64,000 bases of DNA, from NCBI GenBank assembly GCA_036172245.1, contig JAYWIR010000051.1:558001-622000 (forward strand). The letters are read 5' to 3'. This document shows positions 8,182 to 41,914 of this stretch, piece by piece (positions within the stretch are counted from its first letter, which is position 1; each line of letters opens with the position of its first letter). The notes beneath the pieces were generated by a model that made no database searches, was not told the origin of the DNA, and saw nothing but the letters and a program-made list of their open reading frames with translations. A program made the translations under genes and the position numbers. This DNA is from Raillietiella orientalis (taxonomy: Eukaryota).

Positions 8182-10901
8182 ATGGGCTTGCACTTGAAGT
8201 TCTCAACTCATTTTAAGGAAAAACTCGTACCTAATTTGGTAACCATCGGAAGGTACGATGGAAAAACATCTTATATTACTGTGGTCACTTCAGCCAACAA
8301 GGTGAGCCATTTTTTGACATGTGGATGTGTGCACCATAGCAACAGTCCGTTTTACCTGATTGATTAATTTCATTAGGTTGCTATATATGATCCTCTGAAA
8401 ACTATTAAAGGTAGAAAATCTGCAAGCCTGCAAAGGCTCCACAAGGAGCATTCCAGCTGCATTCATTATTTACATGTTGATCAAACAATAAAAGCAATAA
8501 AAGCAAGTCCACTTAATCCACATGAAAAGAGAGATATTCTGTTTGTGGGAACCACTTATAATCTCCTGGCTTATGATGTTATAAATGAATGTGATCTTTT
8601 CTTTCGAGAAGTAATTACTAATATGTGCTAACATGCAATCTCAAATGGGATAATTCAGATACATGAAGGAGTGAATTGTCTTGATGTGGGATTCATTGAG
8701 CCATATGCAGACCCTTTAGTTGTTATAGGAGGCAAATGTTGCATGATTGGATTTGATCACAGAGGAGAAGATCCTTTTTGGTCAGTAACAGGAGATAACA
8801 TCACAGCTTTGTGTTTTCTTGATTTTCATGGTGATGGAAGAATGCAAGTATGTATGCATGGCATGAGTTCTGACATTATTGCCCATGTGGTAGTTGGCAA
8901 CAGGTTGTGAGGATTTTAGCATCCAGGTTTTTCAGAATGAAAGAATAATCACAGAAATACATGAAACTGGTGTGATTCACCAACTTTGTGCTGTAAGTCC
9001 TGGCACTTTTGGTTATATTTTACAGAATGGTACTGTTGGATTATATCATAATGGTCATCGTTGCTGGCAGATCAAAGTTTGTTTTTTGTTTTTCAAAGGG
9101 CAGTAATACTGATTACTACTATTAATACAATAGTCCAAGAATCAGCCAGTTTCTATTTTGGGATTTGATGTTACTGGTGATGGCACTAAAGAACTGGTTG
9201 TTGGTTGGAGTAATGGACAGGTGGAAGTGAGGCAGCTTTCTTCTGGAGAGGTTATTTTTACCGACAGTTTTCCATGCTCTGTAGCAGGTATCGCAATTGG
9301 AGATAGCTTGCAAGACAGCACTTCATTACTGATATGTTGCTCAGTTGACGGAGAAGGTTAGTTGCCAATATACAGTAAAGTATAACTTTAGCAGTTCGTG
9401 GTTATGCGCCATATAACCAGTTGCTTGCACCAGATGTAAAAAAAGAAAATAAAATACTGAGTGATCTTCATAAGAAGCGGCAAGATTTGTCCAGGGAACT
9501 ACAAAGCTATATTTCATGTCAGAAGAGCTGCACAATTGCCAACACAATTAGCTTACCTGTTAGTGAGCAAGTATTAATTTTGGCATTTTGTAATATTGCA
9601 CCGCACTACATTGCACGGCATGGTTTTATTTTGAAATCACCATTGAAATCTGTTGACAGGCTGATGCACAGCTTTTGTCCGAGTGTGTTGTTGAGCAGTC
9701 TCCTAGAAGTGCATCACCTTTTCTGGTAGTGAATACATTTACATTCACAATTATGATTTTCTTGATAGCTTAAGCTAACTAGCAGTACAGGTGGAAACAT
9801 CCGATTTGCAATGCTATTTGCTGAAGGAATTTTCGAAGATGGATGTTTTGTATTATATCCACCCAAAGCACAGAAATGTTTACTAATTCCTCTTCAAGTA
9901 CCACAAAATGTACCCATCAGCATTCATATCAAAGTAAGCCATGGCTCTCAGAACAGTAACTCATACTTATTTTAGGCTCTAGTGGAACTTTCAGTCAGCA
10001 ATTGTTATCACATATTGGAAAAAGAGCAGTACCTTCCTCGTTTTGCTATGTACAAAGTTTTGTTGGGAAGTACTAAGAAACTCCCTCATGGATATGTTAA
10101 GTGCCAGTTGCTGGAGAGGGCCCAGAGAGTAAGAAAACAGTGTGGGCAAATTTTTTTTTTTTACTATGTTGGCATCAGCTAATATTATGGATGCATACCA
10201 ACTTTTTGCTGCCCAAAGAAAATTTTGTAGATGCAAAAGAGTTGCATGTCACCCTTTCGAGTTTGAAAGATGGTCACTTATTAGTAATCCATTTTGTTAA
10301 TGGTAGCTTGCAAATCTGTACAGATAACATGAAGGAAGCTGGTGATGTAATCCAGTCATTGTGTGAATTTCTCAGCCTAAAAGATTTGCAAACCGAGGCT
10401 GATTTTCCTAAAGAGTTGCAGGAAACAGGAACAATGATGCAACAAGTACACCAACTTCAACAAGGACAGCATCACTTGGCTAGTCAAGTGGCTAAACAGT
10501 GTGATGTAGCTAGTGGCCTACTCCTTTATGCTGAGCAGGCTGAAATTTCAGGCGACTTGTAAGCAACATAATGTGAACTAATATCACTTTATTTGCTTGC
10601 TATAGGAGGCTGATACGAAAGTTGTATGAGGAACTGCAGCAAGTGAATGTTGAGCTGCACAACATATTGGAACAACAGGCTTACCATTACAAACAGCTTT
10701 CTGACCATTTGTCCAGTTTGTTTATGATGATTCATCATGCTTCACGTCTGAGAGGTAATCAAAATTATTTAGTTCATTTCGTGTTAATCTGAAGCAGTGG
10801 GCAAATCAGCACAGCAGGTAATAGTTCAGTGCCGCACAGCATTACAGAACAGCAACACAGAGACATTGCTTACGATCATTCAGCATGGAACTTTAGAATA
10901 G
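8182..10901 (+). CDS. BBS2: Bardet-Biedl syndrome 2 protein homolog (BBSome subunit), about 12 exons
   Basis: Exon peptides LVTIGRYDGK, VIGGKCCMIGFDHRGEDPFWSVTGDNITALC, FGYILQNGTVGLY, FDVTGDGTKELVVGWSNGQVEVR, LPRFAMY, EADFP match BBS2. Inferred GT-AG introns include 8611-8658, 8848-8893, 9077-9133, 9357-9404, 9726-9768, 9934-9975, 10129-10178, 10559-10605, 10755-10797. Stop TAG at 10899-10901. Confidence 0.93.
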
Positions 10902-10908
10902 TGTATTA

Positions 10909-12603
10909 TCACAGTAAGTTAAATGATTTCTGATAACAAGCCAACAAACTGAGAAGAACACCACCAACCAGGAGACCAATGTTCTGTATTACCAATATCA
11001 GTGCACCTGCTTGCCTACTTCCTTGGACAGCCTCTTGAAATGTACTTTTCAGCTCAGCCATCTTAATTACATGAGAGCAAAAAAGTAGGATAATAATTTG
11101 AATAATAGTATACCATGCTTCCAAGGGCAATGTACAAAAACATTCCTGCAGCAAATGCAAAAATGAAAGCATCAGCCTTATGAAATGACCCAACCAATAA
11201 GCCAATTATCAGCCCAGCATAGCATGTACATGCTGACAAAAAATTGTACAACAGTGCCTGCTGAAAAGTCATTCCTGCACTGAGAAGCACAGCAAAATCC
11301 CCTAAGCAACAAGGTGTTGATATTCTTGTACTCTACTCACCTAGTTCATGTGGGAACTCTTCACACATAACAGCAATACTAATGCTGATTCCAGTTAAGA
11401 TGCTAGTGGAAAACCCAGCACCCAAGGAAACACCATCAATAAAATTGTGAAATGCATCGCCAATTATTACCATCCAAGCAACAGAAGCAATGCGAGAATT
11501 CACTTTCTGCTCTGTACCGTTTATAGCATTTTTCTTGGGTAACTGGGCATTTTGTTCTGGTTGTGCATTTTGACCTAAAACACTGACATGATGGTAAATT
11601 GAAGGAATTTTCTGCTAAAAAAAAACATCAATCCCTAAAATGTATGCAGTCATAACTTACCACTGGGCTTACGGAGAAAAGGTAAGCAATGTGTTCTACG
11701 AGAAAAAATACATATACAGCAATCAAGACTACAATGCACAGAATGAGGTAATCTTCATGAACAGAACTCTCCATCAGATTAAACGTCTAAAATGTAAGTG
11801 AGAGAGAGAAAAAAAAAGCCAAGTTGTATTCTATTTGAAACTCTTCGGATTGTTAGAAATATAAGTTTACGTGGAAATTAACCTGTGGGATAAGATGCAC
11901 TACTGATGTACCAACCAGTGATGACACAGCTAATCCTGTTAGTCCAGTCAAAATTTTCTGATAGAAATCCTTTTTCATTAAAGGAAATAAGACTACTCCT
12001 GTTACAGATGACAAATTAATAAGTGTGACAAAAAGAAATCCATATCCCCAAGCTGTAAAAGACATTTCTCTTGGGCTTTAGACTAGGACTTAACTCACAT
12101 TCTGTTTTTGATGGCAAAACATGAATGGTTGCATTATGTGATGCAAACTGAGCATTATTGTTACATACGTTGATGTCCACGTGATATAGCAAAAGAGGGC
12201 ATAATTGTTCCAAATCTGAAGCACGTAATGCATTGCCACATGATGCACAAAAGACTGAGGAGAATGCTTCTTTCAGAGAACACTGAGAAAACATTAAAAC
12301 AAAAAATCACTTTTGTTCTAAACATACTTGGGTCCACTTGCAGAGAACATCGTAAATATCATTGTTACATATGTAGTCCACTAAATCATTTTGATTCAGC
12401 ATTAGTGATGTTGAGCTGACACCATTTCTAGGTGAAATTTTAAGATTTTCGAGAAATTCAAAAAACTGCAACTCATTCATGGTATCAGACCGTGAATACC
12501 GATAAATTAGTGTGGAATAAAAATGGGAGAAATCACTGAAGTTGTAGCTACGTGTTTCAGAAACAAATGTAGCGAAAATTAACAAACATATGCTTTTTTT
12601 CAT
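10909..12603 (-). CDS. LIV-1 family ZIP metal transporter, ZIP8/ZIP14 (SLC39A8/14)-like, 7 exons
   Basis: Signal-peptide-like N-terminus [20 protein letters not shown] motif; [13 protein letters not shown]...[41 protein letters not shown] spanning intron 11302-11340; AGMFLYIAL. Stop at 10909-10911. Confidence 0.92.
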
Positions 12604-15228
12604 GTTGATTACCCTAAAACTAACCAGGTCGGATTAAATATTTTTGCATGTAAATAACGGTTTCGGTTTTTCGCTCTGAATCACCAGTCGTGTATCACGA
12701 AAATTCTTGGGAAGAGCCCCGAACGCTCCAGCCACAGTAGTGCAGCTGTGTTGGCTCCGAAAGTAATAAATACGTGTACCACTATGACGATGACAACTAT
12801 CCGTGCACTTACTGCGTTGGATACAGGGAGAGGAAGAAAAAAAAAAAACGAAAACCAAACGGGGGGGAGGGGGAGAATCATATTAACTTTGCAATTTTAA
12901 AATGTTATCTCCGGAATTAAATGCATTTATGAGGATAATCCAATGCCACACTGCAGCAATTGGTTTGATGACAGCAACTGACTGCTTGAAATCTGATTTA
13001 TTTTGTCATCAATGCAGGCACTTAAGAATCAAAAAGAGTGAGGATACTTTGCCTACTTACAATATTTCGAAAAAAATCTTTTGATGGCAAACATCAAAAT
13101 CTTGAAAATGGAGTTTGAAGCAAGAAATTTGCACATCAAGCTATAACAAAAATAGCAGACGTTTAATATTTACGTTTGCATTTGTCGCTTGGCATATCAT
13201 CCCAGAGGAATTTCAAAAATTTAAAACCTCACGTTCAACAGTAATTAACTTTTGTATTTTTCTGACTTTTTTTTTTCTTTCATAAAATTGTTTCTTCTCA
13301 TGGAGTTTCACACCGTTGTGGAATCAGGTTTTTTAAACCTATTTATTTTTTTGGCATTCATCCATGAAAGGGAAACTCATTTCATTTCATGTGCTTTCTG
13401 TCAAAACTTGGTGCAATTTTTTAGAGATTTACTTATAAGTATGGTATCTGCATTCGTCATTACTATCATTTCATCTCTTCTCGAGAATTGGGTGATTTCG
13501 TTTTTCTTGGTTGAAAGTTCTTTGCGTGAATGGTGGAAGTCGTGACTGCTGATTTTGCTCCACTTTTGATTGCCGGGATAGAGTTGCTTTGAATCCAACT
13601 CTATCACTCGGCAGCCACGCTGCACATCCAAGAGCTCATTTCAAACCTTGATCCAATTCAACATCCCATTCTATTCCTTTTTTTTTTTTTTTTCCCGCCG
13701 AAGTTCCCATAGAGAAATGCTGTCTCGCTTTGTGCATTTTGAAATCCTTTTCATTTTTTCTTTCTCTCCTTCCCCCCTTTCCTGAACAGTTTCTTTATCT
13801 GCATCCTTTCATCGGATCAAAGTCCAATACCAATGCCCAAGTTGCCAACAATTCACTCCTGGAATTCTGCAATTTCTCTTGCGATGCAGTTTCCTTTGCA
13901 TACTTACGGGTTTTTTTAAAAAAGTCCTCTTTTCACACTCATCGATCGGCTCGTCAACTGCCGCCGCTTCTTCTGCTGCTGGGAACCCCCGAAGGACCAG
14001 TCGCTTCCGCCAAACTCCCTATGGAACACCGCCGGTCACGTTGGATGCCAACCCGAACGCAGGCACCTTCTTCCTTTTTTTTTTAAGCATGAAGTTCCGG
14101 AATCCCCGTGTCAACACCCACAGGGATTCCACACTGAAAATTCACTCCGATGCAAGCTGCATTTCATTTTTCAAGAAGAGATTCCATCCCGATTTTCGGG
14201 TGCAAAAATTCTGGGCGCAACACCTCATCACGCTTATCACTTGAAATCAATGTTGCCAACGTGCAAGAGTCGTTGCTTGCAAAACCTTACTGACATGCCT
14301 GGAATTGTCTTCGGAAATGCTTCTACCTTTCTTACATCCTCCTCGAGTGCAAAACGATTAGTGACACCATTAATCCCTGATAAAAAACTGCTACTTTATA
14401 TTTTCTCATATTTCTAAGGAAATATGAGGAAGCCAATATTCACAACGTTTACTTCAATACGTTTGTGTGAGTTCGAAGAATTTAAAATTTAATTTTTTGT
14501 AACGATTCCCTCGTTTTTTCCCCCTTTCTTTAAAAAAAAAAATCATTGATTCATACAAGTGCATATTGTGACAACTAAGGACCATTTCAGAATGTTCTTG
14601 AGAAAATGCAACTTATCAAAGACGTAAGTCCGTCATTAAGTATTCCGATTCCGAATTCTAAATATTTGATTGAAATCCCTCATCTAACTTTCTAACTGAA
14701 CTTCTTCATCCTGAAACATCATCTTGATATGTTTGTGCAAAGATTAGAATCCTATTACGGCAACTAAACAAGGAACTTCTTGCTATTCCTTCATCGAATC
14801 CGTTTCACAGAGTCGGAATGCATCACTGACACAAGCTCTATAAAGTTGTGTATTTGCAGTGACTTAAGGGGACAGATGCGAACTCCTCAAACTATTGTTT
14901 TGCAGCAGAATATAAAACTGAGGACAGGTTTATCCGATGTACCCAACGTTGTTGGAACCTGAGAACAGTCTCTACATTCTCCGATGTAAAATTAATACTC
15001 GTGAGCATTTTTAAATTGATCATGCACTTGTTCTCGAAATCTGGCTACGAATACGGGAAATCTGAATGCTTTCACTTGGAGAATGGTTTTCGAAGAATAA
15101 GCTACATCAGTACTTTCATAGGAAGCAGAGAAGGTATATTGATTCCTCAGAAGAGCACTACTGAGGTATCTTAATCGACTTAGGTAGCTTTCTACCTATG
15201 AGTACAATCATCGCCCGAGCTGCAAAAA

Positions 15229-15266
15229 GTCTCTGGGCGTTCCACGCAAGTGGAACGCCCAGAGAC
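15229..15266. repeat. Perfect 17-bp inverted repeat with GCAA tetraloop
   Basis: GTCTCTGGGCGTTCCAC-GCAA-GTGGAACGCCCAGAGAC, read directly. Confidence 0.95.
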
Positions 15267-15699
15267 CTTTAAATTCTTTAGGTGCTGTCCATTTTTTTTT
15301 AGCGGCATCTGCCTTCCCGAAGGTTTGAGAAATTTCTTGTCGAAGTTCTAGAAAATCTCATCCAATCCATACCCAGATTCCCTAGTTCATTAGTCTTTAG
15401 GGAACCATCCATTATTAAAATGCCAGCATTATTAGGGTTCGCTCCGGTGATTAGGGTTCAGTAACCCTTGACTTCCTCTCATCGCCCATTCTCCTATAAT
15501 TGGCTCTTCACTTTGATTAGTTGTAAAGAGAACCTTTTCCATTTGATGTACTATGAAAAGCTGTGCCATTAGGAGCATGTTGCAGTACTACAACTCTAGC
15601 TCCTCTTGTGATAGCCGGAGGGGCTTTCTCTGTGAAAATAGGAACCAGCACAATATCGAAAATCAACCTTTCGCGGTTATTTTTCTAGACGTAGCAGCA

Positions 15700-18200: not shown

Positions 18201-18299
18201 CACGTTTTGTAAGCAATTTCCAAGCTTGTTCCCTACTTGTTCTTGAGATCACGAAGATTTTCATTGGTACCTCTTAAAATTCTTCCTTCAAACAAAATT

Positions 18300-21105: not shown

Positions 21106-21255
21106 GAACGAGTGGTCATCCTGGACCACTCGTTCGCTGTCTTTCAACGCGTTTGTATCACTCTCCACGAGCCATTCGCGGTCTTCAAGAGTTCACGTCA
21201 AAAAGAATCTTTTCGTGCAGAATCCCATTCTCATCAGTAAATTCCTGATGAGAAT
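21106..21255. repeat. Two perfect hairpins (12-bp and 11-bp stems)
   Basis: GAACGAGTGGTC-ATCCTG-GACCACTCGTTC (21106-21135) and ATTCTCATCAG-TAAATTC-CTGATGAGAAT (21227-21255). Confidence 0.9.
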
Positions 21256-26985: not shown

Positions 26986-29900
26986 ATGAAAATGGAAACT
27001 ATTATGAATGAAAAGAAATGTAAAAGTTGGAAGAAACAGAGAGTAGATCGATGTTTGAAATCTCAGACACAGCAAGATTGTGTGGAAAGTGACTCATGTG
27101 ACTGTCAGCAGGTTTCTGATAATCCTGCAGATCCAGTGAATGTGACAGACAAACCTGTCACTATGGATGACCAGCACAATAAAATGGAAGAAAAAACCTG
27201 TAATTCACGTGAGGAAGAATTGGTAAGCAATTTTGAAAGGTTTTCTATTTTATTATTCCGTTTAAATCACTTGGTATGCTTGGATGAAAATTGTGCTTGG
27301 AGAGGATTTGATTGATATGGTTTTTTGAGGAATTAAAGGCATGATTAATTGCATCATTAATTGACATGTTTTTGTAAACACTTCAGTAATGGCTGGTCAT
27401 ATGACTTGGAAATAAAATAAAAACTTGGAAATAAAATAAACAAAGATTTCTGATATTTGTGTTGGACTAAATGTTCATTTTGAACGATTGAACAAATTTG
27501 CGGAGTATTTGAAGAAATGGGATTTACTTGTTTGTGAATTTTTTGATCATGATAATGCAGATTACAGTATTTCAGGGTATTTTCACACTTAAGTTGCCAG
27601 AATTGTGTTTATTTTCAGTAAGACTGTTTAAAGTAATTGTACTTTCATAAAGGACCTTTAACTTTTTTTAAACATTACAGCTTATTTCCCTATGTGTGTT
27701 TGGGAATTGTTTTCAAATGCACACAAGGGATTTTGAAAATTTGATACCATTTTTTTCCTACTCTCTCAGTGGTATTGAGAAAAGGATTCTTCATATATTA
27801 TTTTCTGTATGCCACCTCTTGCTTTTCTTTGCTGTGATGGATTATATTTTCTTGATACATTTACAGTTTTTAAATTTTATTGGTCTTTAGTGATCAAATT
27901 TTCTTTAAATTTAGGATTATCAGTTTGGAAAAGTTGGGATAACAGTCACATTAGTGATTGTTTTTTTTTTATAATAGCATCTATTGGCACAAAGTTCATT
28001 GTCATTTTTTATCTTGAAAGTAGTTGAAAGCTTGCTGCTCCCGCCATGTTTATCTTTCCTTTTTTTATTATCCAGCTTTACTTTCCAACTTCGTGTATAA
28101 ATCTATGGTTTAGAGTTTAAATGAAATTTGGATGTTTGTTCAGAGTTCAGTTTGAAACTTACAATATTCTCTTTGTTTTTCCATGTTATTCTCTATATTC
28201 ATAATTCATTTCTGTTTGTGCATTTTTTTTCTACTTTTTTTGTTTTTTTGATGCTCTTCCAATTCTGTATCATTCATTGAGTAAGCATTTTTTACTTTAT
28301 GTGGGTTTTTTGAAGTGGTTGACTTTTGTGTTCTGAAAATAATGACAGTTGCTTTTCTCTTGTTTTCCCCAAAAGCTTTTTAGCTTCAGGACGTAATTGA
28401 TGTGTGTTGTGACCTCACTTTAAGCAGTATGGGATTTTATGTTATTGTCAAAATTGTTTCAAAGTATTTTTGTTTTTATATTAAAATCTTTGCTTTGAAC
28501 TGAAAAGTAATTATGCTCTATGAAGTTTCCTGTGAGTTTCCTTCAGTCAAAGAATGTAGCACAGCAGAAATTTTAGTCATATTAAAACAGCATTGAACTT
28601 TTACGTGGGCTTTTCGTTTATTTTTCTTTGTTTTCTTATTTCTCGGTAAATTTTTTTCTGAGGATTCTCATTGATGAAGCGGTTGCTGTGAATGTGTTAA
28701 CATTCAAATTTTCTGTCAGCATCTCTGGAAAACATGCCAACTTAAAATCATATATTGTTGTGTGGTCTTGAATAATTTTTCTTTGGTGCATCATTTTTGA
28801 TTAAGAGTCTTCAGGTCCTTTCTAATCAGGATACCAAGGAAGGTCAGTGATGTAAGTTAGGATGCATTCTAATATGTGGACAATTTGTAATGGCATTTGA
28901 AAGAATGGAAGGACATGTTCCAAATGTCTATAAGTTTGGAGTACTGTAAGTTCTATCACAATTAACCAAGGTTATGTTGTTGCACTACTGAATAAACTTA
29001 GCATTCCAAATGAAGACTTGAACAATCAGTAATCTAATGTATGGTGAAATTCCCTTTGCAGGCATGTGCAAAAATTTAATTACAGCAGGTTAAAGAATTT
29101 AATGCAGCTAGTACATTCAACATATATCAATCATATTGTTGGGTCTTGAATAATTTTTCTTTTTCTGTCATTTTTGGTTGAGAGTCTTCAGGTCAGGTGG
29201 AGATATGTAATGAAAGAGTTTATATGAAAAAAAATTGCATTCTGCAGTATTTGATGAAATATTTATAATGGTTAGATCAGTGTCTTCTGAAAGTAGTACT
29301 AGGCTTTTCGGATGTCAAACTGTTCTTGTACATTGAGCAAAAAGGAATTCATGCAGTTTTGTGGAATGGTTACCATGCTGATCTGACTGATTCAGGTAAC
29401 AAAAAGTTACCAATATTCAGATCAAAACAATCACCGAAATTTTCAAACACATTATGGTTTTAATTCTGAACCTTCAAGACATGATGTATTGATAACTGCT
29501 ATGGACTTTTAAGGAGTTAGTTTAGGAGTTCAAAAAGAATAACTAATCGGAAAACACTTGATTTTCTTAAAGATGTATTAAAGGAAAGGCAAAAGAATTT
29601 GAATGAAAAGAATGTCCATGAAGGATTTTTTTTATCAAAGTATATTTTAAATCAAGTGCAGCAAAGAAGAAATGTAAAACGAAGACTGTTTTTGCTAATT
29701 ACTGAATTTTTCGGGACTCGGATGCTTAAATAGTGATCATATTCAGATGATTTCTTTGATATTTGCATAGATAGCTGTTTTCAAAACAGCAACAGTAATT
29801 GAATGATGTTTTCTATGGATTAACAGTGAATGAGTAATTTAATTAAAAATCACACCATTAATTTAATGTTTTAAGTATATGTTTCCAATAGATGTATTTT

Positions 29901-32900
29901 GATACAGTGAGTTCTGGTATTGTTCATATGTCAGTTTCAGAAGTATTTCTATTTTATTACCGGTGTTGCAATAGTTTACAAACATGCAAGGGGGAATTGA
30001 GACTTAAGCTATATAACACCAATGCTTGTTGTGGTTGGTATGTGTGATGGTTATGGTTATAGTAAATCAGTATTAAGTGGTTAAAAAATGGTATATGGTT
30101 GTAATGGATGGCTTTGACATTTTTTTCCTTCTGATTAACAGTGTAAGCATTTAAAGTAATGCTTTAAATGAAAAAAGGAAAGGAGAAAGAAATGGAGAAA
30201 GTCATTGTCTTTTACAGATGTATTGCATTGATGGTAGTAGAAATTATCTTTTAAAAATGTTAATAAAAAATGGTGCTGATACTTTGTTAGATTTTTTGCA
30301 AGTTTACCAAAATGGCTTCAATCATTTTGATGTTAAATGCATTTCAGGAGTGTCTACTCAACTATATTCGCGAGACTGAAGCCCGGCTTACAGCAAGAAG
30401 AGAAATTCGTGCTATCAATCAGATTGCACCTCACAATCGTCCAGAGGAGGCGAATTATACGAAGTTGGATTCAAGTCTTAAAAAAAATACAGCATTTGTT
30501 CGAAGATTGGTAAAATAAGTTTCATAAAGCATTTTTTGTTATGAATGTAATTGTTTTTGTTTTAGCGCAATATGACAGATGCCCAGAAGGATTCAATTAT
30601 CAAAGACATGGACAGTCTGAATTTGAGCAAATATATCAGTGAAGTTGCGACTGCAATCATTGAATCCAAGCTGAAAATGTCAGATATTTCCACAGCAGTT
30701 CATATTTGTTCCTTACTTCATCAAAAGTATGCAGAATTTGCACAGCATCTTTTAGATGGGTGGCAGAAAGTTTTGAACTTACGAAAAGATGAAAAAGTAA
30801 GAAAGTTTTCATGAAACACTAAATCAGTCATCGAATTTGAAAGATCGTTAATCCGAGCAAACTGCGAGTTGATGTACGATTTTATGCAGAATTGATTGCA
30901 GCCGGTATTTTTAGCCACAAGGAAGGCTTACCAATTTTAGGCAATTTGCTAACCACTTTAGTTCATATGGATAAAGATGACCATAACAATTTAAGCATAG
31001 TATTGAGTTTTTGCAAGCACTGTGGAGAAGATTATGCAGGTACTTGTGACTGGGTGTTAGAAATAATGACCCAGCTTTAGCATGCTGGGTTCCTTGATAC
31101 AGGATTCATTGTGGATTGCTATAGGCCTTCTACCTAAACGAATGCAGATGCTATCTGCCAAATACCAAATGGAGATTCCACAGAGTGACTTGCTTTCACC
31201 AGAGAAGAAGAAAAACGTCCGTTTACTGCTGAAAGAGTACTATTCCACTTTGTTAAGACATCTTTTGAAAGTAATATTAGTGATTTAATCTATAATGTTC
31301 ATTATTATGTTAAAAGGATTACAAAGAATTAAAAAATTATGAAAGACAAAATCGTCGCATTTTACAAACCAAAGGAGAATTAACCCAAGAAAGACAAGAA
31401 AAGATTGAAGCACTGAATTCGACTTTCCAGAAATTGACCTGTAATGCACAGCAGTTTGCAGAGATCCTTGGTGAAGAGCTGCCACAGTTTCCTAAAGAAG
31501 GTCAGAGTTCACATATAAATATTAAATTCATGCTTTGTATATATGTAGAAACTTGTGACACTGCTGATGCAGGTGTAATTTTGAGAGTAGGTGAAGAATA
31601 CAATTTAAATGAGAAAGGTGACATCTTCTTGTTCTGGGAAGATGAAGATACCAGAACCTTTTATGAAAACCTTCCTGACTTGAAAGCCATCATCCCAAGC
31701 ATCCTGTACAGAGACAGTGCTCAAGCAGTCATCAATTCAGTTGAAGTAAGTATATTTTGCTCTATGCACTCATATGTCATCCAAAGTCAGGTTCAGTAGA
31801 AGAAGTTGAGGAAAATGACTTAGAAGAAGTTGAACTTCCAGAAAAAGAATTAAACGAGAAGAAACTAGCAGAAGAGGAGATTCTTCCCCCTGAACTGGAA
31901 GGTTCGATCGAAAATTTTTTCTAATATTTTTCCAATCGAATTTTCCAGATGAACCTGAGGAGTGTGAACAGTCAAGTAGTTCCGTGAATAAAATGCTATT
32001 GGATGCATTCCTCAATTCACTTCCGACCTGTGTAAACCGAGAAATGATTGATAATGCAGCTACCGAATTCTGCATGACCCTGAACACCAAAGCAAATCGG
32101 AGAAAATTAGTAAAGTAAATCTTAACCTTTTCCATTTATCGATGTAAATTAAGTGTATTTAATCCGGAAAATGTTAAAAATTTGTTTTAATTTCAAGGAC
32201 ATCGTAAATCACAAAAGTTTATAGTTAGAAAGCACTCTTTGTTTGTATGTAATACAGGTTTAAGAAGGAAGGTGCAAAAAAAAATTGAAGTTGCCATTTG
32301 TTTTTTTCATATTTTTTTAACAATTGAAGAATTTACACATTGTATGAAACAGCGTATAAGCTGTTTCTGCGTAAATGGTCATATTATTATTGTTATTCAT
32401 CAAGAGTTTAGATTAAAAGGAGTATTACACTATGTACTTATTTTGGGTTGCCTGTTACACCCATTAATGTTACGTTGATGTTTATATTATTTCACTGAGA
32501 TGATAAATATTTCCAAGAATATTATAGCGATAAGTGAATCAAAGAATTCAGATATGGATGTGGTGTTACGTGACTCAGTGTTGTGCAGATAGTTGTGGAT
32601 GAATTTGTTTGCAATTTATCAAAGGAAGAGGTACATAGAAATTGCAAAACCCAATTAAGTTGGTAGCATTTAGTGATTACTTGGGTTTGAGTGGAATTAG
32701 AATCGTGCATTCTGTTGAGTTTTGAATAATTAATTCCAATTCAGTATAATTATAGAATATGTGAGAGAAGGTCTGTAATAATGAACAATTACATAATAAT
32801 AATGTAAGAATCAAATAGAATTATAATGTATCAGACAATGAAGAAAACATTTTTATCAGCATCAAGTAACTTCTCCAAATGCTGTCAAGTAAACATTTGT

Positions 32901-35900
32901 TTGGTTTTTTAAAATCAGATGCACATGTGCCAAAAATAGGAGTTTGATGTACACTCAGTGCCTCCTTTGGTTTTACACGGATCATGGTTTTTGGAATTAA
33001 TTGTGTGTTGGTAAAATTTTTGGGAAGATAAAAAAAGACGGAAGTTAAGCTTCATGATGTTTCTAATGATTGGCATTCTAATCACATGTGATGTTGTTTG
33101 AAGCATGTTCTTTTGTTGAAAAATAACATGAGTTAGTTAATGATTAGCTGTGAAAAAATGTGGAAGTAAAAAATTGAAAAATGGATGCCCCATGTTTACT
33201 ACCAAACATGTATCCCTCGAATTTGCGAAATTATGCATTGCTTTAAATGCTGTAATTTAAATTTCTTTGAATGCTAAAATTTTAAAGTAATTATGCATTA
33301 CTTTAAATGGTTTGTTTATTGACTAGTTCGTTAAATTCACCATTTGCTATATCATAAAATAGGTATAGGTATAAAATAGATATAAGGGGTAGGGTATATA
33401 ATTATGACACATCACGTATGTTGTGGAACTTGCTACTGTGTAAAACTGAGAACCTTATTTCACTTCTGAAAGCTATCGAATCATGTTTTACGTGAATTTA
33501 TTGTTTTCTGCATTAACTAAACTTTGAATTAATTGAATTCTCTCCCTGCCATTTGTAAATATCTTTGCATAAATGATTTGTTTGTAAACATAAATCTTGT
33601 AGTTATGCATAATGAGTATTCGTCATCAGCTCATAACTAAATATTTCGCAGGGTGCTTTTCTTGGTTCCTCGTACCAGACTCGATTTATTGCCCTTCTAT
33701 GCTCGACTTGTAGCTACACTGTATCCATGCATGCCAGATGTGGCCAATGATTTATGTCTGATGTTAAAACAAGATTTCCGTTATCAAGTGTGGAAAAAGG
33801 TAAGTGTAAGTGTACATAGTGCAAGCAGTAAATAAATTATCATGTTCTAGGATCAAATTAACATTGAATCAAAGATCAAAGTGTGCCGTTTTATTGGCGA
33901 GATGGTCAAATTCCAAATGTTCTCCAAGGCTGATGCGCTTTCTTGTTTAAAACAGTTACTTTTTGATTTTAGCCACCATCACATTGAGATGGCCTGCAAT
34001 TTACTTGAAAGTTGTGGTCGGTTTTTATTTAGAAGTTTGGATTCTCATCAGAGGACAAAAATATATCTGGTATGTATTCTCTGTTCTATATTTATTATCG
34101 TGTATGTACGTGTATATTGGCATATGCATAACATTTTTAACCTTTTGCAGGAACAAATGATGCGAAAGAAGATGGCAACAGCCATGGACCTTAGATATTC
34201 AATGATGATCGAAAATGCATATTATTATTGCAATCCTCCAGATGTCCCATTGCAAGCAGCACGCAAAGAGCGTCCTCCAATGCATGAATATATTCGCAGA
34301 CTACTTTATAAAGAGCTTAATAAAAATACAACAGAGAAAGTTCTACGCCTAATTCGTAAAATGAAATGGGATGATGATGATATTGCATCTTATATTTCCA
34401 AATGTCTGATTGGTGTGTGGAATGTAAAATATTATAACATTCGGTGCTTAGCAAACTTGTTAGCAGGACTTGCTATTTATCAGGTAACCCATTAATTGTT
34501 ATTGGATAGCTTACAGATTTTTAGGAAACGGCCTGTTTGCAAGTTGTGGATGGCGTGTTGGAAAATATCAGGCTTGGAATGGAAATCAATCAACCTAAGT
34601 ATAATCAGCATCGTGTGAGTACAGTCAAATATTTGGGTGAGCTGTACAATTATAGAATGGTGGAAAGCTCAGTCATTTTCAAGGTATGTGTTGTGTCCTT
34701 TAAAATATTTTCATGTATTCTTTTTACATTAATTTCTGGCTTCTAACTTGAAACTTATTACATTGAATACTATCATTTGTTAATCATGCCAATGTAGTTT
34801 TTGTATCACTAGTAAAAAATTTCGTTGTTTTAAAACCTTTTGATCATTGGGTATTGATTATCTAATCAATATCATCATCAGTATTGATTAGCTTTTGTAA
34901 CAAATGTGTGTTCGAATTTATTAATTTTTTTAAACTTATTTCTTATTGTCAGTAGTAAATGTATTCAATAAATTGTTTTGCCAATGTTCTCAGTGCTTTA
35001 TTTTGTTGAAAATAGCTTTGAGGTAATACAGTTTACAGTGATTTGCTTTTTGAAAAAAATCCTAAACCTCCATTCATGTTGTTTTAAATTTAGGTTCTAT
35101 ATTCATTCGTTACTTTTGGTACCAGTTTCAACAATAATAATGATTTAATAGCTATGGAATTGGATCCTCCTGATAATTTGTTCCGGATCAAGCTAATTTG
35201 TGTACTACTTGATACTTGTGGCCAGTATTTCAATAGTGGCTCAAGCAAAAAAAAACTTGATTGTTTTTTTGTGTACTTTCAGGTATGTGTAAAGTATTGT
35301 TTCTCTGCTTTCTCTAGAGTATTTCTTGACTTCATTTGAACTTTTTCATACTGTTTCTCTTGTGGTGTGAAATACATCAATTTATGCTGCCATAGATTAT
35401 TTTCATGTACCAATTCTGATATTTTAATAAGATTGAATTTGCATTTATTCAAAATTCGTTTTCACATTATACTTTTGGTGCATCAAATGTGTAATTCGCA
35501 AATTACGAATCCCGACAGGTCTTTTACCTAGGGTTCTTGGCATTTAACACTTGAAATGAAACCTGACAGTAAAATGTAAAAATAAACATTGAAATGATTA
35601 AGCGTACTACACAATTCAAGGATTGAAACACATGACTTCCATACAGAGGCAATATACAGCTTGTCAATTATTTTGATTTTATTCTTTCTTGTTTCTCTGT
35701 TCATCTTGTCAATAGCCAGGAAGAACCTTTTAAAAGATTCTGCCGATAATCACTTACAGATAATGTCTCAGAAGTGCATGTCTCAGCATTCACATTTGTT
35801 GTTTTTAAAAAAACAATATTATGGTATGTTTCGCATGTTGTTTCAGGAGCATCTTTTACTAGTTTGCACTTTCAATGTTGCATGTTTGCATCATTGTAAG

Positions 35901-38433
35901 CATCTGCTAAAATTTGGAGCGTATCTCGTTAAAACAATTGCGAAGTGTGGAAGTCTTATATATTGTACATAAAATTTTCACACTTGTGAATTCTCAACTT
36001 CGTAAATCCCCAAGCAGAACATGGTATTAAGTATTCGTTTCCGTAAATTACTACATGATTTCATGCTCAAATAACCAAGCCTCAAAAGCACAACCCCCCA
36101 GGTTTTGTTTTCATATTGTCTAGGTGTTTTTCTGCACTTGATTCTTAAAGTGCTTTCTTGTATCATCTTTCTTGTGTCACTTCCTTGTAATTTGCAATGT
36201 TCTTTGTTTATTCAATTATTTAATCAGGTTCACCAACATGCATTCAAGGTTTTTTTGTTTTTTTAGGTAATCTTCTCGTTTGCATTACTTTTGTTTATAT
36301 GTTTTTAGGAGCATAACACGCAACCAGGTTGCCTTTTTTCCATTTCCAGAGGGTCAGTTGACTTGTCTGCATATATTTGATCCGTGTTGATTTTAAACCT
36401 TTAAATGGTGTTTCTTTGTTGCCTGGTCGTAGTTTGAGCACGAGATTCGCCCCAGGCAATTGCAATTCATCGCAACGTCATATGTAATGTGAATTCATAC
36501 TGGAGTCATTCTTATTGCTTTCAAATTTTCCATCCATTTTGAAAACCTTTCGTAATTTTTTATCGTTACTTATTATCAGCTTTTAATAAATTTTAACAAG
36601 AACTTGACGTTTGTTTTAATAACTCAGTTGTTTCGAGCTGGAGTGCAGAGCGTGTGGTTCTTTTTTATAGTCATACCTGTAAAACAAACCACTTTTATAT
36701 TCCATTTTATTGTTGAGTTCATTACTAAGTTTGTGGAGATTTTCACTGAAGAAGCTCAAGTTTCCTATCGTAGGGTTAAAATTAGGAATCTTCATTTCAA
36801 ATTATTGAAACTCTTTATCAGAGCATCCGTGTCATTTTTACCTTTGTATGCACATCAAACTTTTATTAATGATAAAGCACGTATCATTTTTATATTTGAG
36901 AGTATGTTTAAGATGATTGAGGAAAAAAAATGCATTTAATCAAAAGCAGTTTTTATCCTTGCCTGTGGAAGGTTGGGCAGTCCGTCATTTGATAGTTTTC
37001 AGTGACTGGCTTTGCAAGTTATTGATCCAATGAAAAAATCTTATCAGTGACAAACTTCAGGTTTTCATGTGTCTTGCTTTCACGTATTTGTTTAGAAGTT
37101 TGTAAACACATGAAACACGAGCACAAATTTTCAAATATAGAATAATATTAAATTATAGTTTACCAGTTGTAATTCTGTTGAACCCTTAGATTGCTTGTGA
37201 CTAATACTTGTGAATGGTTTTCTAGAAATATTATTGGATGAAAAAAAAACACTCGTATTTTGAAGAAAATCCATTTCCTGTCTCGGTAGATCATTCCGTG
37301 AGGGATATAATCGCATTACTGAGACCAAAAATGAAATTTGCTACCAGTTTGGAAGAAGCAAATAAAGCAGTCATGGAAATGGAGTTAGAATTAATCGTTA
37401 AAATAAAAGACATATTTCCTTCAATGAAACAGTCACTGAGCAATGGTGATGGACTAGCATCTATAAAAGAAACGGATGAAGGTGAAAAATTTGCTTAAGT
37501 CATCACGTCATCCATCCTGTTAGATGATGCTCTAGATTTGGTTAATAGCGACTTTGATGTAAATACTGAATTGGATGCAGAAGAAGATGGTAGCCAGACA
37601 TTAGAAACTACACTTTGGACTCATGAAGATAACTTATCACAGCAAAGCCCATCTAATGAGGTAAGAATTTTGTGCTGGATCTTTAAAAAGAAGTTGTTTC
37701 ATAGTGCGAGGATGACAATGAATCTCCTGATGACAGAAATGAAAAAGAATTGGAAGAAATGGATCATGATCAAGCTTGGTTATCAAAGCATCTGGAACGA
37801 ATAGCTTGCTCTGAAGATGAAGAGTTCACATCAGCGTTTGAGAAAATGGTCTCAGAGAGTATTCAGGATCGCAACAGAGAAGTGCTGAAACCTAGTCACG
37901 TTGACATATCTGTACCATTTTACATCCGTAGTAATATCAAAAGAAGTTATGGTATGCAAATGTAGGGAAAATGGTTATAACCATATTACTTTTTGTAGAA
38001 CATTTGAGTGAATCAGATGGGAAACATGTTGATAAAATGACATTTGTTCTGATGACCAGAAGAGGTAATAAACAACAGTATAAGAACGTTGCTGTTCCAA
38101 CAGATTCTGAATTGGCCCAAAATTTGCGGCATCGAGAGGAAGTATGTATTTCATATTAGATTAATAATTCCTGTTGGTAATTAAAAGGTGGAACGGCTGG
38201 AGAAACAACATATCAAGAAAGTAACACTTGACATAAACGAAAGACAAGAGGAAGAAGATTATCAGGAAATGCTGTCACAGGTAAGGTTCTCAGAGTTCAC
38301 AAAAAACCAACCAGCATCGTAGATTCAAAAGCCTGCCCTAATTAACGTAAATCGTGAAAGACGCCCAAAGTATCAACATCAGAAAGGTGTGCCAGATGCT
38401 GACTTAATTTTTGGCACCAGAAAAGTAAAATGA
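26986..38433 (+). CDS. UPF2: Regulator of nonsense transcripts 2 (NMD factor), about 20 exons
   Basis: KLDSSLKKNTAFVRRL, LNLSKYISEVA, SFCKHCGED, WEDEDTRTFYENLPDLK, LPTCVNREMID, VPRTRLDLLPFYARLVATL, HHHIEMACNLLESCGRFL, IENAYYYCNPP, YLGELYNYRMVES, LLDTCGQYF, LMTRRGNKQQ match the MIF4G domains and C-terminus of UPF2. The first exon 26986-27222 splices in frame to 30348 (less certain). Stop TGA at 38431-38433. Confidence 0.96.
28746..29194 (+). repeat. Diverged ~70-bp direct repeat in UPF2 intron 1
   Basis: AATCATA..TTGTTG..GGTCTTGAATAATTTTT...GAGTCTTCAGGTC occurs at ~28746-28818 and ~29129-29194. Confidence 0.8.
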
Positions 38434-38875
38434 ATTGACATTCGAGTCCGAATTGACTAATGAGGCAAAGCGAATTGCACCCTGTACGCTTTTGGCAGAG
38501 ATGAGAAGAGGTTGAAATTCTTCGTGATGAAGCATTCTAGCAGCCTAGCCATTCCGATGTCAAAAATAGAATTAAAAGTCTTTCTTTCTTTATTTTTTTT
38601 ATTGTATTTTTACTGCAGGGACTGGACTTTATTATTGTGTCCAGAGTTGGGAATGACAACCCCACAGACCCGAGTCATATCAAAGTTTGATTTCTATACA
38701 TTGATTTTGTGCATGACTGCCTAGGTAGATCATTGGATTTCTTAAAGCTTTTTGAAAAGTTTCTTTCTGAATTCGGATTTCTGATCATTTGGAACATCAA
38801 AGCTGTGCAGCAGAAGACTTGTCTAGTTTTTTTTTTTTTTTTTCTTTCCAAAATGCATACTAACTAAATGAAAAA

Positions 38876-40306
38876 ATGTCCGTCAGTAAGCGGAAAGAAA
38901 TTTATAAATATGAGGCAGCGTGGACTCTTTATAGCATGAACTGGTCAGTGCGTCCAGACAAACGCTTTCGGTAAAGACATTTAGCAAAATATAAGTGGTG
39001 AAAGGAATTTATGCATGCATGGTGCACAAAGATAAAGTTGTCAGATCTTCAGGTGCTCATGTATTAAATTTAACAGCATACACTTTCAGATTAGCTATTG
39101 GAAGTTTTGTCGAGGAGTATAACAACAAAGTGCAAATTATAACACTGGATGAGGAAATCTCCGAGTTTGTTGTCAAAAGTACATTTGACCACCCTTACCC
39201 CACAACAAAGATAATGTGGATTCCAGATAGTGTAAGAGTGCTCCTGAGTTTTCTCATTATGAATCGATTAGAAAGGAAAATATCCAGACTTGCTGGCTAC
39301 TAGTGGAGACTACCTGAGAGTATGGAGAGTTGGGGATCCAGATGCACGCCTGGAATGCCTGCTGAATAATGTAGGGTAACATAGTGGTGGATGTGGTAGC
39401 CTAGTTATTTGTTTAAGAATGCAAGTGATTTGTGAACTATCCAATGTTTGTTTGCATATCATCGAAAACCTAGTTGTGTTTCTTTTATCAGAATAAGAAT
39501 TCTGATTTCTGTGCTCCCCTAACATCTTTTGACTGGAATGAGGTAGAGCCCAATTTGTTGGGAACTTCAAGCATTGATACCACATGCACCATATGGGGTT
39601 TAGAGACAGGCCAGGTAAGCTAACCAGTAAATTGAAAGTAATAGGCTCAGTAGATTCTTGGAAGAGTTGGTGTATCAGGACATGTCAAGACTCAACTAAT
39701 TGCACATGATAAAGAAGTCTATGATATTGCCTTTAGTAGGGCAGGGGGAGGCAAGGATATGTTTGCTTCAGTAGGTCAGTCAGAAAGTAACTTGCACAAG
39801 ATAAACACTTGATGTAGGAGCTGATGGATCCGTGAGGATGTTTGATCTGCGTCACTTGGAGCACTCCACCATCATCTATGAAGACTCGAATCATACACCA
39901 TTATTAAGACTTGCTTGGAACAAACAAGACCCTAATTATTTGGCTACATTTGCTTTGGACGCATATGAGGTAGACCCCATTACCCTTGGTAGCATGTATA
40001 AGAAATTTGTAGGTGATCATTCTGGATGTTCGGGTACCTTGCACACCAGTAGCTCGATTAAATAATCATCGAGCATGTGTCAATGGAATAGCTTGGGCAC
40101 CTCACTCCTCCTGTCACATTTGTACTGCTGCTGATGATCACCAAGCTTTAATATGGGATATTCAGCAGATGCCAAGAGCGATTGAAGATCCTATATTAGC
40201 TTATACTGCTGCAGAAGGTGAAATCAACCAGATTCAGTGGGGAGCTACACAACCTGACTGGATTGCTATTTGTTATAACAACTGTCTGGAAATTCTCAGA
40301 GTGTGA
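38876..40306 (+). CDS. DCAF7: DDB1- and CUL4-associated factor 7 (WDR68), 7 exons
   Basis: [109 protein letters not shown]. Introns 38971-39089, 39232-39271, 39371-39491, 39615-39653, 39775-39817, 39970-40012. Confidence 0.97.
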
Positions 40307-40311
40307 GCAAT

Positions 40312-41911
40312 TTATTTGCCACTTTGTTTTAATTCCAAAAACACTGACAAGTGCAACTGATGACAAATATCTTGCAAAAACTGAAGAATGTACCCATCCT
40401 TATCAACTTGTTGATATGAATAAATGATAATTAAATATATGTTGCGTTCTACTCTCTTTAAAAAATACGTGCATTGCATGTAAGCATCATAAAAATGAAT
40501 CACCTGATCTAGATCTGACTCTCTGTTGCTTGTTAGCATTGATACAAGATTAGGCCAGTGTGTAGTTGGTTTCTGAAAGTATACCTACAATAAGACACAA
40601 ATTGCAATAATGCTTACTGATGGGTATGAAAAAATGGCAGGAAAGCAATCAATTCCTTTAAATATTTCCTTTACTCTTTCTGGGTGACGATATGCTGCAC
40701 CTTGATAGTCACTTAGACTCAGAGTATCCAAAATTAATGTGACAGATGTAGCATCAGTTTTTTTCTGAAATGTTTGTAATCTTCAAGGAAATCATAAAAT
40801 CCTTGTTTCTGACTTACTCTTTCACATAATCAGTTTGTAGCTTATTGCAGAACTTTGATAAGTCTTGGAAAGAGTCATTTGACTGTGACAATAAAATTTC
40901 ATAGAAATACACAGAGAATTTACTTATGAGTGAATTTTTCAGTTTACATATCCATACAAATAATGCTTGTGATGGAAGGCGATTGTGCATGATTTTTCTG
41001 AACTACAGATGCAATGAAATTATTATAAATGACATGTTTTATGAAACTAACTTCTCTTCCATACATGTGATTTTCCCAGCTGTTTAGTTTAAGCTGAGCT
41101 TCACTCAAACACAGAATAGAAGGGACAAATTTCCATTTTTGCATTTCCAGTAGTGCTTCGAATAGCTTATGCATTACTTCAGTTTCATAACTACACTGCA
41201 AACCATTATTTGAACTGGGAACAGCAGTCTTACTTGAAAGCTATTTTCAAAGAGCTAAGTAATGGATGATGGAAGCAATTGGCATATTCTGCAATTAGGC
41301 ACGCAACATCGTCCACAATCTTATCATATGCTATGGTCTTCAACACTGCCATGTAACTTATCTTTTCATAACTTATCCATTGAGAAAAATGCTTCACAAC
41401 ATAATTTCATGTCATAGGAAAGGATACAGGCACAGCAATTTGATGCGAGCATTAAGGAAATCCCTCAAATGCTTACTCAAATGTACTAACAAGTTTCCTG
41501 TCTCTTCAATAGAATTACCAAAAACTAGAAACTCATTTTGCAATTCTTCAAAACTGGTTTTTAACGACGCCTACAAAGGAAACACGCTTACAATAACTGC
41601 TATCAAATTCGCGTACATACATCTTTACGTAAAAAGCCTTTTGATACTAAATAGGTAAGGCCAAAGTATGATTTCTCCAGGGTAACAAACTGCAGCAACA
41701 GTGCAAAAAAGCGAGAACATCCAAATACTTGAAACTTATTTAGATCTTTTTCTTTTTCCTTATAAGTGGTCGGAAAGCATTAATCGCATTCACGTGAAAA
41801 TATATATCTTACCAGTACTTCTTTTGCTTTTGTTTGCATTCCTTGCCCGAGGGCAACGAAAAACACTTCCAAAATTTTCTCCAATTTCAAAATACCATTT
41901 CTGTTGTCCAT
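40312..41911 (-). CDS. KICS2: KICSTOR complex subunit 2 (C12orf66 homolog), 8 exons
   Basis: Spliced peptide MDNRNG..LEVFFVALG..KAKEVL/EKEKDLNK..LEKSYFGLTYL..RKD/..LVHLSKHL..ARIKLLCLYEKI..FHHPLLSSL..YETEV..WKFVPSIL..SKFSVYFYEIL..YQGAAYRHP..HWPNLVSM..VIHFYD..TYFL aligns collinearly with human C12orf66 as recalled. Introns 41759-41812, 41571-41620, 41372-41427, 41191-41233, ~41004-41051, 40781-40817, 40573(or 40585)-40617. Confidence 0.9.
41372..41427 (-). other. Putative U12-type GT-AG intron (56 nt) in KICS2
   Basis: 5' end GTATCCTTT is the U12 donor consensus; TTTTCTCAAT close to the 3' end resembles the U12 branch site TTCCTTAAC; no pyrimidine tract between it and AG. Removal restores the frame (LLCL-YEKI). 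Confidence 0.8.
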
Positions 41912-41914
41912 AAA

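Follow-up and report, generated by a model that had tools for sequence, protein, structure and literature searches.

Genes and Introns of the Window

The window analyzed here is a stretch of 64,000 nt from Raillietiella orientalis (GenBank assembly GCA_036172245.1, contig JAYWIR010000051.1, positions 558,001 to 622,000 of the forward strand). It contains five genes, coding for BBS2, a ZIP zinc transporter, UPF2, DCAF7, and KICS2, whose introns are mostly only 37-57 nt long and combine strong donor sites with weakly marked acceptors. It had originally been predicted that the acceptors of these introns may be set by their distance from the donor rather than by a pyrimidine tract bound by U2AF, and it is this proposal which is evaluated in the following. 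The genes were recognized as listed below, together with a sixth one from the GC-rich part of the window that is used for comparison; all positions are those of the window, and ORF stands for open reading frame.

8182..10790, + strand: BBS2 gene; Pfam BBS2_N, BBS2_Mid, BBS2_GAE, platform, and hairpin on successive ORFs, match to bovine BBS2 in the PDB (chain 6vbu_2); 3' end approximate
10915..12603, - strand: gene for a LIV-1-type ZIP zinc transporter; Pfam Zip PF02535 on three ORFs and ORF map; one intron placed
27010..38433, + strand: UPF2 gene (aligned part; N-terminal exons uncertain); homologues of 52-65% identity, spliced alignments with 12 homologues
38876..40306, + strand: DCAF7/WDR68 gene, seven coding exons; last exon matching homologues at up to 96% identity, 12 homologues used for spliced alignment
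40315..41917, - strand: KICS2 gene (C12orf66-like, KICSTOR subunit), eight coding exons; Pfam PF09404 on six ORFs, 87 relatives, spliced alignments with 17 homologues
at least 54.0-60.8 kb, - strand: CELF gene, GC-rich part of the window; Pfam and homology, RRM_1 match

Introns were placed by a protein-to-genome spliced aligner of our own, which accepts introns with GT/GC..AG ends and a length of 25 nt or more in any of the three phases, so that AT-AC introns are undetectable by this procedure. The compiled set consists of 36 introns from the five genes of this one window, all of them deduced from the sequence: 27 were obtained by spliced alignment of homologues to UPF2, DCAF7, and KICS2, and nine by ORF continuity in combination with Pfam or PDB coordinates in BBS2 and the ZIP gene. 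All 12 UPF2 homologues agree on 11 of the introns, and one further intron each is placed by 11, 10, and 9 of them. Four additional short introns are required in the same gene, one of which removes an in-frame stop, with exact ends varying among the homologues, and three N-terminal introns are unreliable. Five of the six DCAF7 introns were recovered with all 12 homologues and the remaining one with 11, and the seven KICS2 introns with 17, 17, 16, 16, 15, 15, and 11 of the 17 homologues. The eight BBS2 introns follow from ORF continuity and are backed by the continuity of Pfam profiles in three cases and by the alignment to 6vbu_2 in two, plus length agreement for a third, and the ZIP intron was placed by the continuity of the Pfam Zip profile. 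The BBS2 segment 9395-9770 is without an intron placement because neither the homologue search nor the PDB search gave a match to BBS2: none of 339 candidates reached E ≤ 0.001 with window positions 10101-10559 as query, and the coiled-coil ORF at 9379-9726 produced only a single chance match in the PDB (E = 0.53).

The introns are given below with the support for each, where fractions denote the homologues placing the intron at exactly these ends; the CELF intron used for comparison comes last.

30510..30565, +: UPF2, 56 nt, T-rich acceptor (12/12)
30797..30843, +: UPF2, 47 nt, AAG acceptor, without tract (12/12)
31040..31124, +: UPF2, 85 nt, decoy TTTAG 41 nt from the donor (12/12)
31271..31316, +: UPF2, 46 nt, AAG acceptor (12/12)
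31501..31548, +: UPF2, 48 nt (9/12; alternative acceptor 31596 in 2/12)
31902..31948, +: UPF2, 47 nt (12/12)
32115..33651, +: UPF2, 1537 nt (12/12)
33800..33850, +: UPF2, 51 nt (12/12)
34070..34150, +: UPF2, 81 nt, in frame and stop-free (12/12; 27-residue BLASTP gap against two homologues)
34484..34524, +: UPF2, 41 nt, internal AG 8 nt before the acceptor and 3 nt after CTTAC (12/12)
34684..35093, +: UPF2, 410 nt (12/12)
35283..37225, +: UPF2, 1943 nt (12/12)
38142..38187, +: UPF2, 46 nt, AAG acceptor (11/12)
38281..38322, +: UPF2, 42 nt, A/C-rich, skipped CAGs ending at 13 and 34 nt (10/12)
38971..39089, +: DCAF7, 119 nt, five skipped internal AGs at 61-106 nt (12/12)
39232..39271, +: DCAF7, 40 nt (11/12)
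39371..39491, +: DCAF7, 121 nt, T-rich acceptor (12/12)
39615..39653, +: DCAF7, 39 nt, CAGTAG end (12/12)
39775..39817, +: DCAF7, 43 nt (12/12)
39970..40012, +: DCAF7, 43 nt, without TNAY motif (12/12)
41759..41812, -: KICS2, 54 nt, AAG acceptor (15/17)
41571..41620, -: KICS2, 50 nt, pyrimidine-rich acceptor (17/17)
41372..41427, -: KICS2, 56 nt, donor GTATCCTTT (U12-type consensus), AAG end (16/17)
41191..41233, -: KICS2, 43 nt, skipped TTTGCAG ending at 38 nt (16/17)
41003..41051, -: KICS2, 49 nt (11/17; alternatives in 4/17 and 2/17)
40781..40817, -: KICS2, 37 nt, shortest supported intron (17/17)
40573..40617, -: KICS2, 45 nt, skipped internal TGTAG at 33 nt (15/17; 33-nt alternatives in 1/17 each)
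8302..8376, +: BBS2, 75 nt, skipped AGs at 38 and 44 nt (ORF continuity only)
8611..8658, +: BBS2, 48 nt (ORF continuity; downstream exon begins at BBS2 residue 116 in the 6vbu_2 alignment)
8848..8893, +: BBS2, 46 nt (ORF continuity; 6vbu_2 alignment)
9077..9133, +: BBS2, 57 nt (Pfam BBS2_Mid positions 75 and 76 on adjacent ORFs)
9357..9394, +: BBS2, 38 nt, or 35 nt, TAGCAG end (ORF continuity only)
9934..9975, +: BBS2, 42 nt (ORF continuity; 6vbu_2 alignment up to the junction)
10129..10178, +: BBS2, 50 nt, T12 run (ORF continuity; Pfam platform domain begins at the exon start)
10559..10605, +: BBS2, 47 nt (Pfam BBS2 hairpin positions 50 and 54 on adjacent ORFs)
11302..11340, -: ZIP, 39 nt, splits the metal-binding motif HELG/DF at the slash (Pfam Zip profile continuity across two ORFs)
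54135..54192, -: CELF, 58 nt, inside RRM3, 26-nt all-pyrimidine tract, pyrimidine fraction of 1.0 at -18 to -4 (read from the sequence; RRM_1 match)

The motif split by the ZIP intron is one which we take to be characteristic of LIV-1 ZIPs. As many as 28 of the 36 introns belong to a narrow length class of 37-57 nt (median 46 nt, standard deviation 5.4 nt), five measure 75-121 nt and three 410-1943 nt, and all 36 begin with GT and end with AG. As judged from the alignments and domain coordinates, the 37-57-nt introns of the five genes are confirmed as real. The seven introns for which coordinates had been predicted (40781-40817, 39615-39653, 39232-39271, 34484-34524, 38281-38322, 41191-41233, and 11302-11340) were all recovered with the same ends and with the support listed above. 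The predicted dominance of the short class is upheld as well, while the total of about 49 introns on which it had been based comes down to 36 plus seven uncertain ones, parts of BBS2 (9395-9770) and of the ZIP gene being without a placement.

Splice Signals of the Short Introns

The donors of the 28 short introns are strong GTAAG sites, with A at +3 and at +4 in 21 introns each and G at +5 in 22, whereas their acceptors show little signal past the absence of G at -3 (T in 17, A in 6, and C in 5 introns). The resulting acceptor triplets, TAG in 17, AAG in 6, and CAG in 5 of the 28 introns, with TAG outnumbering CAG, represent an unusual usage for an animal. The fraction of pyrimidines at positions -18 to -4 (Y) amounts to 0.57 in the short introns, compared to 0.52 at +7 to +21 of the same introns and about 0.49 across the short introns overall, and the pyrimidine tract usually located between branch point and AG in U2-type introns is almost lacking in them as a class. 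Values of Y do not exceed 0.53 in 11 of the 28, and the longest pyrimidine run between -25 and -3 comprises at most four nucleotides in 17. These values bear out the earlier description of many short introns as tract-less, and the strong TTTCAG acceptor is mostly absent, as had also been observed: the nematode-type TTT[CT]AG (TTTYAG) occurs in 4 of the 28 introns.

Tract-type acceptors do exist in this genome, as indicated by the four CELF acceptors read from the sequence, whose Y values are 1.0, 0.87, 0.87, and 0.73 and one of which belongs to an intron of 58 nt. The contrast between short and tract-bearing introns, which had been drawn for CELF and for the kb-sized UPF2 introns alike, is clear for the former and weak for the latter: the three kb-class UPF2 introns show a Y value of 0.58 (n = 3), and 23 of 75, 5 of 11, and 46 of 87 of the AGs skipped inside them have an equal or richer tract.

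Two of the short introns end in tandem acceptors of the NAGNAG type. Use of the proximal CAG in DCAF7 (CAGTAG, 39648-39653) would leave an in-frame TAG at the start of the exon, and both choices are in frame and one residue apart in BBS2 (TAGCAG, 9389-9394).

Distance from the Donor and Choice of the AG

The distance from the donor carries information on the choice of the acceptor. The first AG encountered at a distance of 37 nt or more from the donor coincides with the acceptor in 27 of the 28 short introns (19 of the 20 with homologue support), the threshold of 37 nt having been set post hoc to the length of the shortest intron observed. Only one AG at 37 nt or more is found ahead of the acceptor in the short introns, compared to 9.06 in composition-preserving shuffles, of which 3 in 5000 are as low. 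Within the last 12 nt of the introns, AGs up to 36 nt from the donor occur at background level (7 seen, 6.0 expected), whereas those at 37 nt or more are strongly depleted (1 seen, 7.7 expected; Fisher p = 0.004). No AG is present in the zone whose distance is 37 nt or more to the donor and over 12 nt to the acceptor; this zone comprises only 31 positions, however, in which the background density of 0.055 would yield about 1.7 AGs, and it is therefore without statistical power.

The same rule fails in seven of the eight longer introns of these genes: four of the five mid-size introns together skip 12 such AGs, and the three long introns skip 173; since so many AGs past 37 nt are passed over, 3' signals must be read in them. 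Another exception is KICS2 41191-41233, which skips an AG at 38 nt although the same gene contains an intron of 37 nt. The skipped AGs which had been pointed out before, namely the CAGs ending at 13 and 34 nt in UPF2 38281-38322 and the TTTGCAG ending 5 nt before the acceptor of KICS2 41191-41233, are indeed present. Of the original prediction that the acceptor may be set by the distance from the donor, the part claiming that this distance is informative stands (27 of 28 introns, 1 versus 9.06 AGs), while a ruler that replaces the 3' signals is not supported in view of the longer introns and of the KICS2 intron.

Branch-Like Motifs and Skipped AGs

In 24 of the 28 short introns, the acceptor is preceded at 11-27 nt by the A of a TNAY motif, compared to 19.6 ± 2.3 in shuffled sequences, 70 of 2000 of which reach the observed number. 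The use of TNAY as a simple branch-point predictor was rejected, as the motif is too common in AT-rich sequence, with 19.6 of 28 found in the shuffles. The motifs cluster at +26 to +30 from the donor (18 motifs) and at -15 to -11 from the acceptor (17 motifs), with peaks at -15 (6) and -12 (5) in this sample of 28 introns and a degenerate motif. Anchoring the counts on the donor or on the acceptor does not separate a ruler from a model based on the geometry of the spliceosome.

Seven of the 11 AGs skipped within the last 15 nt lie 3-10 nt after the A of the nearest TNAY. In DCAF7 39615-39653, the skipped proximal CAG is located 9 nt after the A of GTAAT and the used TAG 12 nt after the same A; in KICS2 41191-41233, a CAG is skipped 10 nt after the A of ATAAT and the AG at 15 nt after the same A is used. 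AGs skipped at 9-10 nt and used at 12-15 nt after a branch-like A fit the published zone past the branch point in which an AG is unusable.

Within the UPF2 intron 31040-31124, a TTTAG lies at 41 nt from the donor and is preceded by TNAY motifs at 11-14 nt; according to the alignments of all 12 homologues, this TTTAG is not used. This decoy matches genuine short introns, and its use would shift the frame of a gene for a factor of nonsense-mediated mRNA decay; it may be regarded as a candidate for an unproductive alternative 3' splice site.

Probable Minimal Introns with Squeezed Signals

These introns are probably ordinary U2-type GT-AG introns of a minimal class, which would be recognized across the intron and whose signals appear to be squeezed together. 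Their uniform GT..AG ends and GTRAGT-like donors agree with U2-type introns, and the narrow length distribution across the five genes and the weak 3' splice sites with the minimal-intron class. A strong GTAAG donor would be followed by a branch point at a distance of at least about 23-29 nt, and the acceptor would be the first AG past some 11-12 nt directly downstream of the branch point, a zone in which an AG would be unusable. Distances of about 25 nt from donor to branch point and 11-12 nt from branch point to AG would then sum up to the observed floor of 37 nt. Because introns of 37-45 nt would be nearly filled by these two minimum spacings, there would be no room for a tract, and the branch point would be pinned to about -11 to -15. 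AGs less than about 37 nt from the donor would be unusable and hence tolerated, whereas AGs past this limit would be used and hence selected against. As the two minimum spacings would account for the AG pattern, the apparent measuring of length would be a by-product of spliceosome geometry rather than a separate mode of splicing. Note that the introns themselves, their weak tract, the AG distribution, and the positions of the branch-like motifs are shown by the data, whereas we infer the identity of the branch adenosine, both minimum distances, and the involvement of U2AF.

Several observations weigh against this explanation. The TNAY motif is degenerate and weakly enriched, 4 of the 28 short introns are without one at 11-27 nt, and the branch points are putative. 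Among the 11 skipped AGs, three are as far as 15-20 nt past the nearest strict TNAY and one is without any TNAY upstream, so that non-consensus branch sites would be needed, for which CCAAC in UPF2 38281-38322 may be an example. The implied minimum of about 25 nt separating the branch point from the 5' splice site is some 10 nt below the value of about 35 nt quoted for the fly in PMC5762160. In keeping with squeezed signals, Y decreases from 0.65 in introns of 50-60 nt (n = 7) to 0.59 at 44-49 nt (n = 10) and 0.52 at 37-43 nt (n = 11), but this trend is not significant (Spearman 0.34, p = 0.08). Finally, the decoy in UPF2 31040-31124 looks like the end of a good short intron, and neither the geometry model nor a ruler accounts for its non-use.

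Comparison with Known Short Introns

Nematode short introns are of a similar modal length, near 47 nt, and end in a UUUUCAG acceptor; with TTTYAG in only 4 of 28 cases, the introns of the window fall outside of this class. A literature search for intron-length peaks in arthropods yielded nothing usable.

The closest counterparts are found among the 40-50-nt introns of Drosophila (Pai et al., 2017, PMC5762160). In this study, they are described as having weak 3' splice sites, with a tract that is often absent in short fly introns and dispensable, and minimum distances of about 35 nt from 5' splice site up to the branch point and about 15 nt from there to the 3' splice site are given, which confine the branch site of a 45-nt intron to -15 to -10 and leave a tract without space; in the 40-50-nt class, the branch motif is found at -14. 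The introns described here share with them the weak 3' sites and the frequent absence of a tract, which tends, though not significantly, to weaken with falling length; they would likewise be defined across the intron, and their branch-like motif may take a similar position (about -14 there, TNAY at -11 to -15 here). They differ in that, in the fly, the ultra-short introns are the slowly spliced end of a length distribution in which splicing is fastest at 60-70 nt, whereas introns with a median of 46 nt and a minimum of 37 nt are the main class in the five genes, and in the aforementioned lower minimum spacing of the branch point from the 5' splice site.

A protected zone of 12-18 nt is reported to follow the branch point, in which AGs are unusable (PMC4358997), and AGs are avoided at the 3' end of short introns (PMC10946897). 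The likeness to the window consists in AGs that stay unused up to about 12 nt past the putative branch point and in the avoidance of AGs between this zone and the acceptor, which would explain the CAGs passed over at 9-10 nt and the AGs taken at 12-15 nt. The published evidence consists of the human zone of 12-18 nt and of asymmetry patterns in Drosophila, whereas the zone implied here, with inferred branch points, is at the low end, at about 11 nt.

Alternative Explanations

A donor-anchored mode of splicing, which comes nearest to the original prediction, appears unlikely. In such a mode, the shortest introns would ignore everything within about 37 nt of the donor and ligate the first AG beyond, and the branch A would be chosen by its distance from the 5' splice site instead of by sequence or a U2AF-bound tract. 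The success of the 37-nt rule in 27 of 28 introns (19 of 20 with homologue support), the AG counts in the last 12 nt on either side of this limit (7 versus 6.0 expected, 1 versus 7.7 expected), the 31 positions devoid of AG, and the weak pyrimidine tract are all in keeping with it, and a precedent may be seen in myxozoan and dicyemid introns of less than 30 bp, in which candidate branch A residues are conserved farther from the AG in longer introns (PMC13644364). The latter introns also resemble those of the window in having a 3' motif of little beyond AG and a missing or very short tract, but their medians are 22-27 nt and their donor is reduced to GTa, whereas the introns reported here have a minimum of 37 nt and a full GTAAG donor and do not belong to a sub-30-nt class. 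The threshold behind the rule was chosen post hoc, however, and the rule does not hold in seven of the eight longer introns of these genes, where 12 and 173 AGs are passed over, so that another signal must decide which introns obey it. The AG at 38 nt in KICS2 41191-41233 stays unused in spite of a 37-nt intron in the same gene, as does the decoy at 41 nt in UPF2 31040-31124; the length spread of 20 nt is too loose to separate AGs that are 3-5 nt apart; the zone without AGs, the only one by which a ruler and the geometry model could be told apart, lacks power, with about 1.7 expected; and the same AG pattern is predicted by the two-minimum geometry. A separate donor-anchored mode is therefore neither needed nor favored. 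It is doubtful that this lineage has such a gate for its minimal introns, in which the branch A would be taken at a spacing of about 25 nt from the 5' splice site, largely irrespective of sequence, and the first AG at or beyond about 37 nt would then be ligated without a U2AF-bound tract; if it did exist, it would represent a compact mode of intron definition, intermediate to the usual introns of animals and those of less than 30 nt in myxozoans and dicyemids.

It is rather improbable that the short tract-less introns are spliced without U2AF, by a protein with a U2AF homology motif (UHM) such as SPF45/RBM17 taking its place on SF3B1, which is the route of a subset of short introns in human. 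Such a route would be compatible with either the geometry or the donor-anchored model. The introns resemble the human class in being short with a truncated or absent tract, and human short introns with truncated tracts whose splicing is U2AF-independent and SPF45-dependent provide a precedent (PMC8363638). The human class, however, is a minority there and is defined by its dependence on the factor, the intron sequences have no bearing on protein factors, and the human model intron of 56 nt would be at the top of the range observed here.

That the short introns are artefacts of gene modelling, i.e., wrong boundaries or frameshifts of pseudogenes taken for introns, is hardly credible. In favor of such artefacts, the set was deduced from the sequence, with 9 of the 36 introns placed by ORF continuity and domain coordinates only, and the ends of four UPF2 introns are ambiguous. 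Against them, independent homologues give the same placement for 27 introns (9-12 of 12 or 11-17 of 17), all 36 introns are of the GT..AG type with a GTAAG-like donor profile, the reading frame continues through every exon of these highly conserved proteins (DCAF7 reaches 96% identity in its last exon), and read-through would break the frame in 18 of the 28 short introns, whose lengths are not divisible by three. A depletion of multiples of three among the short introns was not found, the 10 of 28 observed being equal to the chance expectation.

Further Features of the Window

The KICS2 intron at 41372-41427 (- strand, 56 nt) has the donor GTATCCTTT, an exact match to the U12-type donor consensus, and an AAG end without a pyrimidine tract. 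U12-type introns are marked by the donor RTATCCTTT and by a branch site, TCCTTAAC, some 10-15 nt upstream of their 3' end. A match to TCCTTAAC within one mismatch is not present in this intron, and its best branch candidate is TTCTCAAT, an imperfect match whose A precedes the 3' end by 9-10 nt. The U12-type donor motif occurs three times in the window, compared to 1.18 expected by chance, and in none of the other 35 donors. As judged from its donor, the intron may be an unusually short member of the minor class; a literature search for a minor intron in C12orf66 did not find any.

The closest relatives of the UPF2 protein are those of centipedes, with 64-65% identity. In a tree of 109 rows (FastTree), the sequence from the window is on a long branch (0.5) with centipedes and a horseshoe crab as the nearest rows and is part of no supported clade. 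Directly 5' of the DCAF7 start codon (38876), a run of about 18 T is followed by TACTAAC within 38826-38875, which could be a promoter or 5' untranslated region element.

The base composition of the window is split, with about 30-39% GC at 22-42 kb and 55-70% GC at 44-64 kb, and the step is made within about 2 kb at a boundary around 42000-44000. The CELF exons in the GC-rich half have GC contents of 0.56-0.63 and C-rich pyrimidine tracts; the exons of DCAF7, UPF2, and KICS2, at a distance of 12-25 kb from them, have 0.34-0.43. An isochore-like boundary, an effect of recombination, and an assembly join are all candidates for this step. The approximately 14 kb between the ZIP gene and UPF2 (13000-26900; 40-45% GC) do not contain a conserved ORF in the six-frame listing; a strong AT skew of -0.33 is seen at 16-18 kb, and neither repeats nor RNA families were detected in this stretch. 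A scan of the window against Rfam gave no matches, and apart from one 42-nt repeat in two copies, no repeats, tandem or other, were found in it.

Implications

On present evidence, the introns of this window extend a described phenomenon rather than representing a new mechanism, and what sets them apart from those of the fly is the dominance of the short class in five genes and the lower floor. If this picture holds genome-wide, introns of 37-57 nt would be the standard short class of this animal, which is arthropod-like by protein similarity, about 15-20 nt below the 60-70 nt at which Drosophila introns are spliced fastest, and the minimum distance between donor and branch point would be smaller than that quoted for flies. 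Gene finders trained on tract-bearing acceptors will misplace such junctions, which is of consequence for annotation. Under the same condition, the genome would offer a natural test bed for the choice of acceptors in introns that have no room for a pyrimidine tract.

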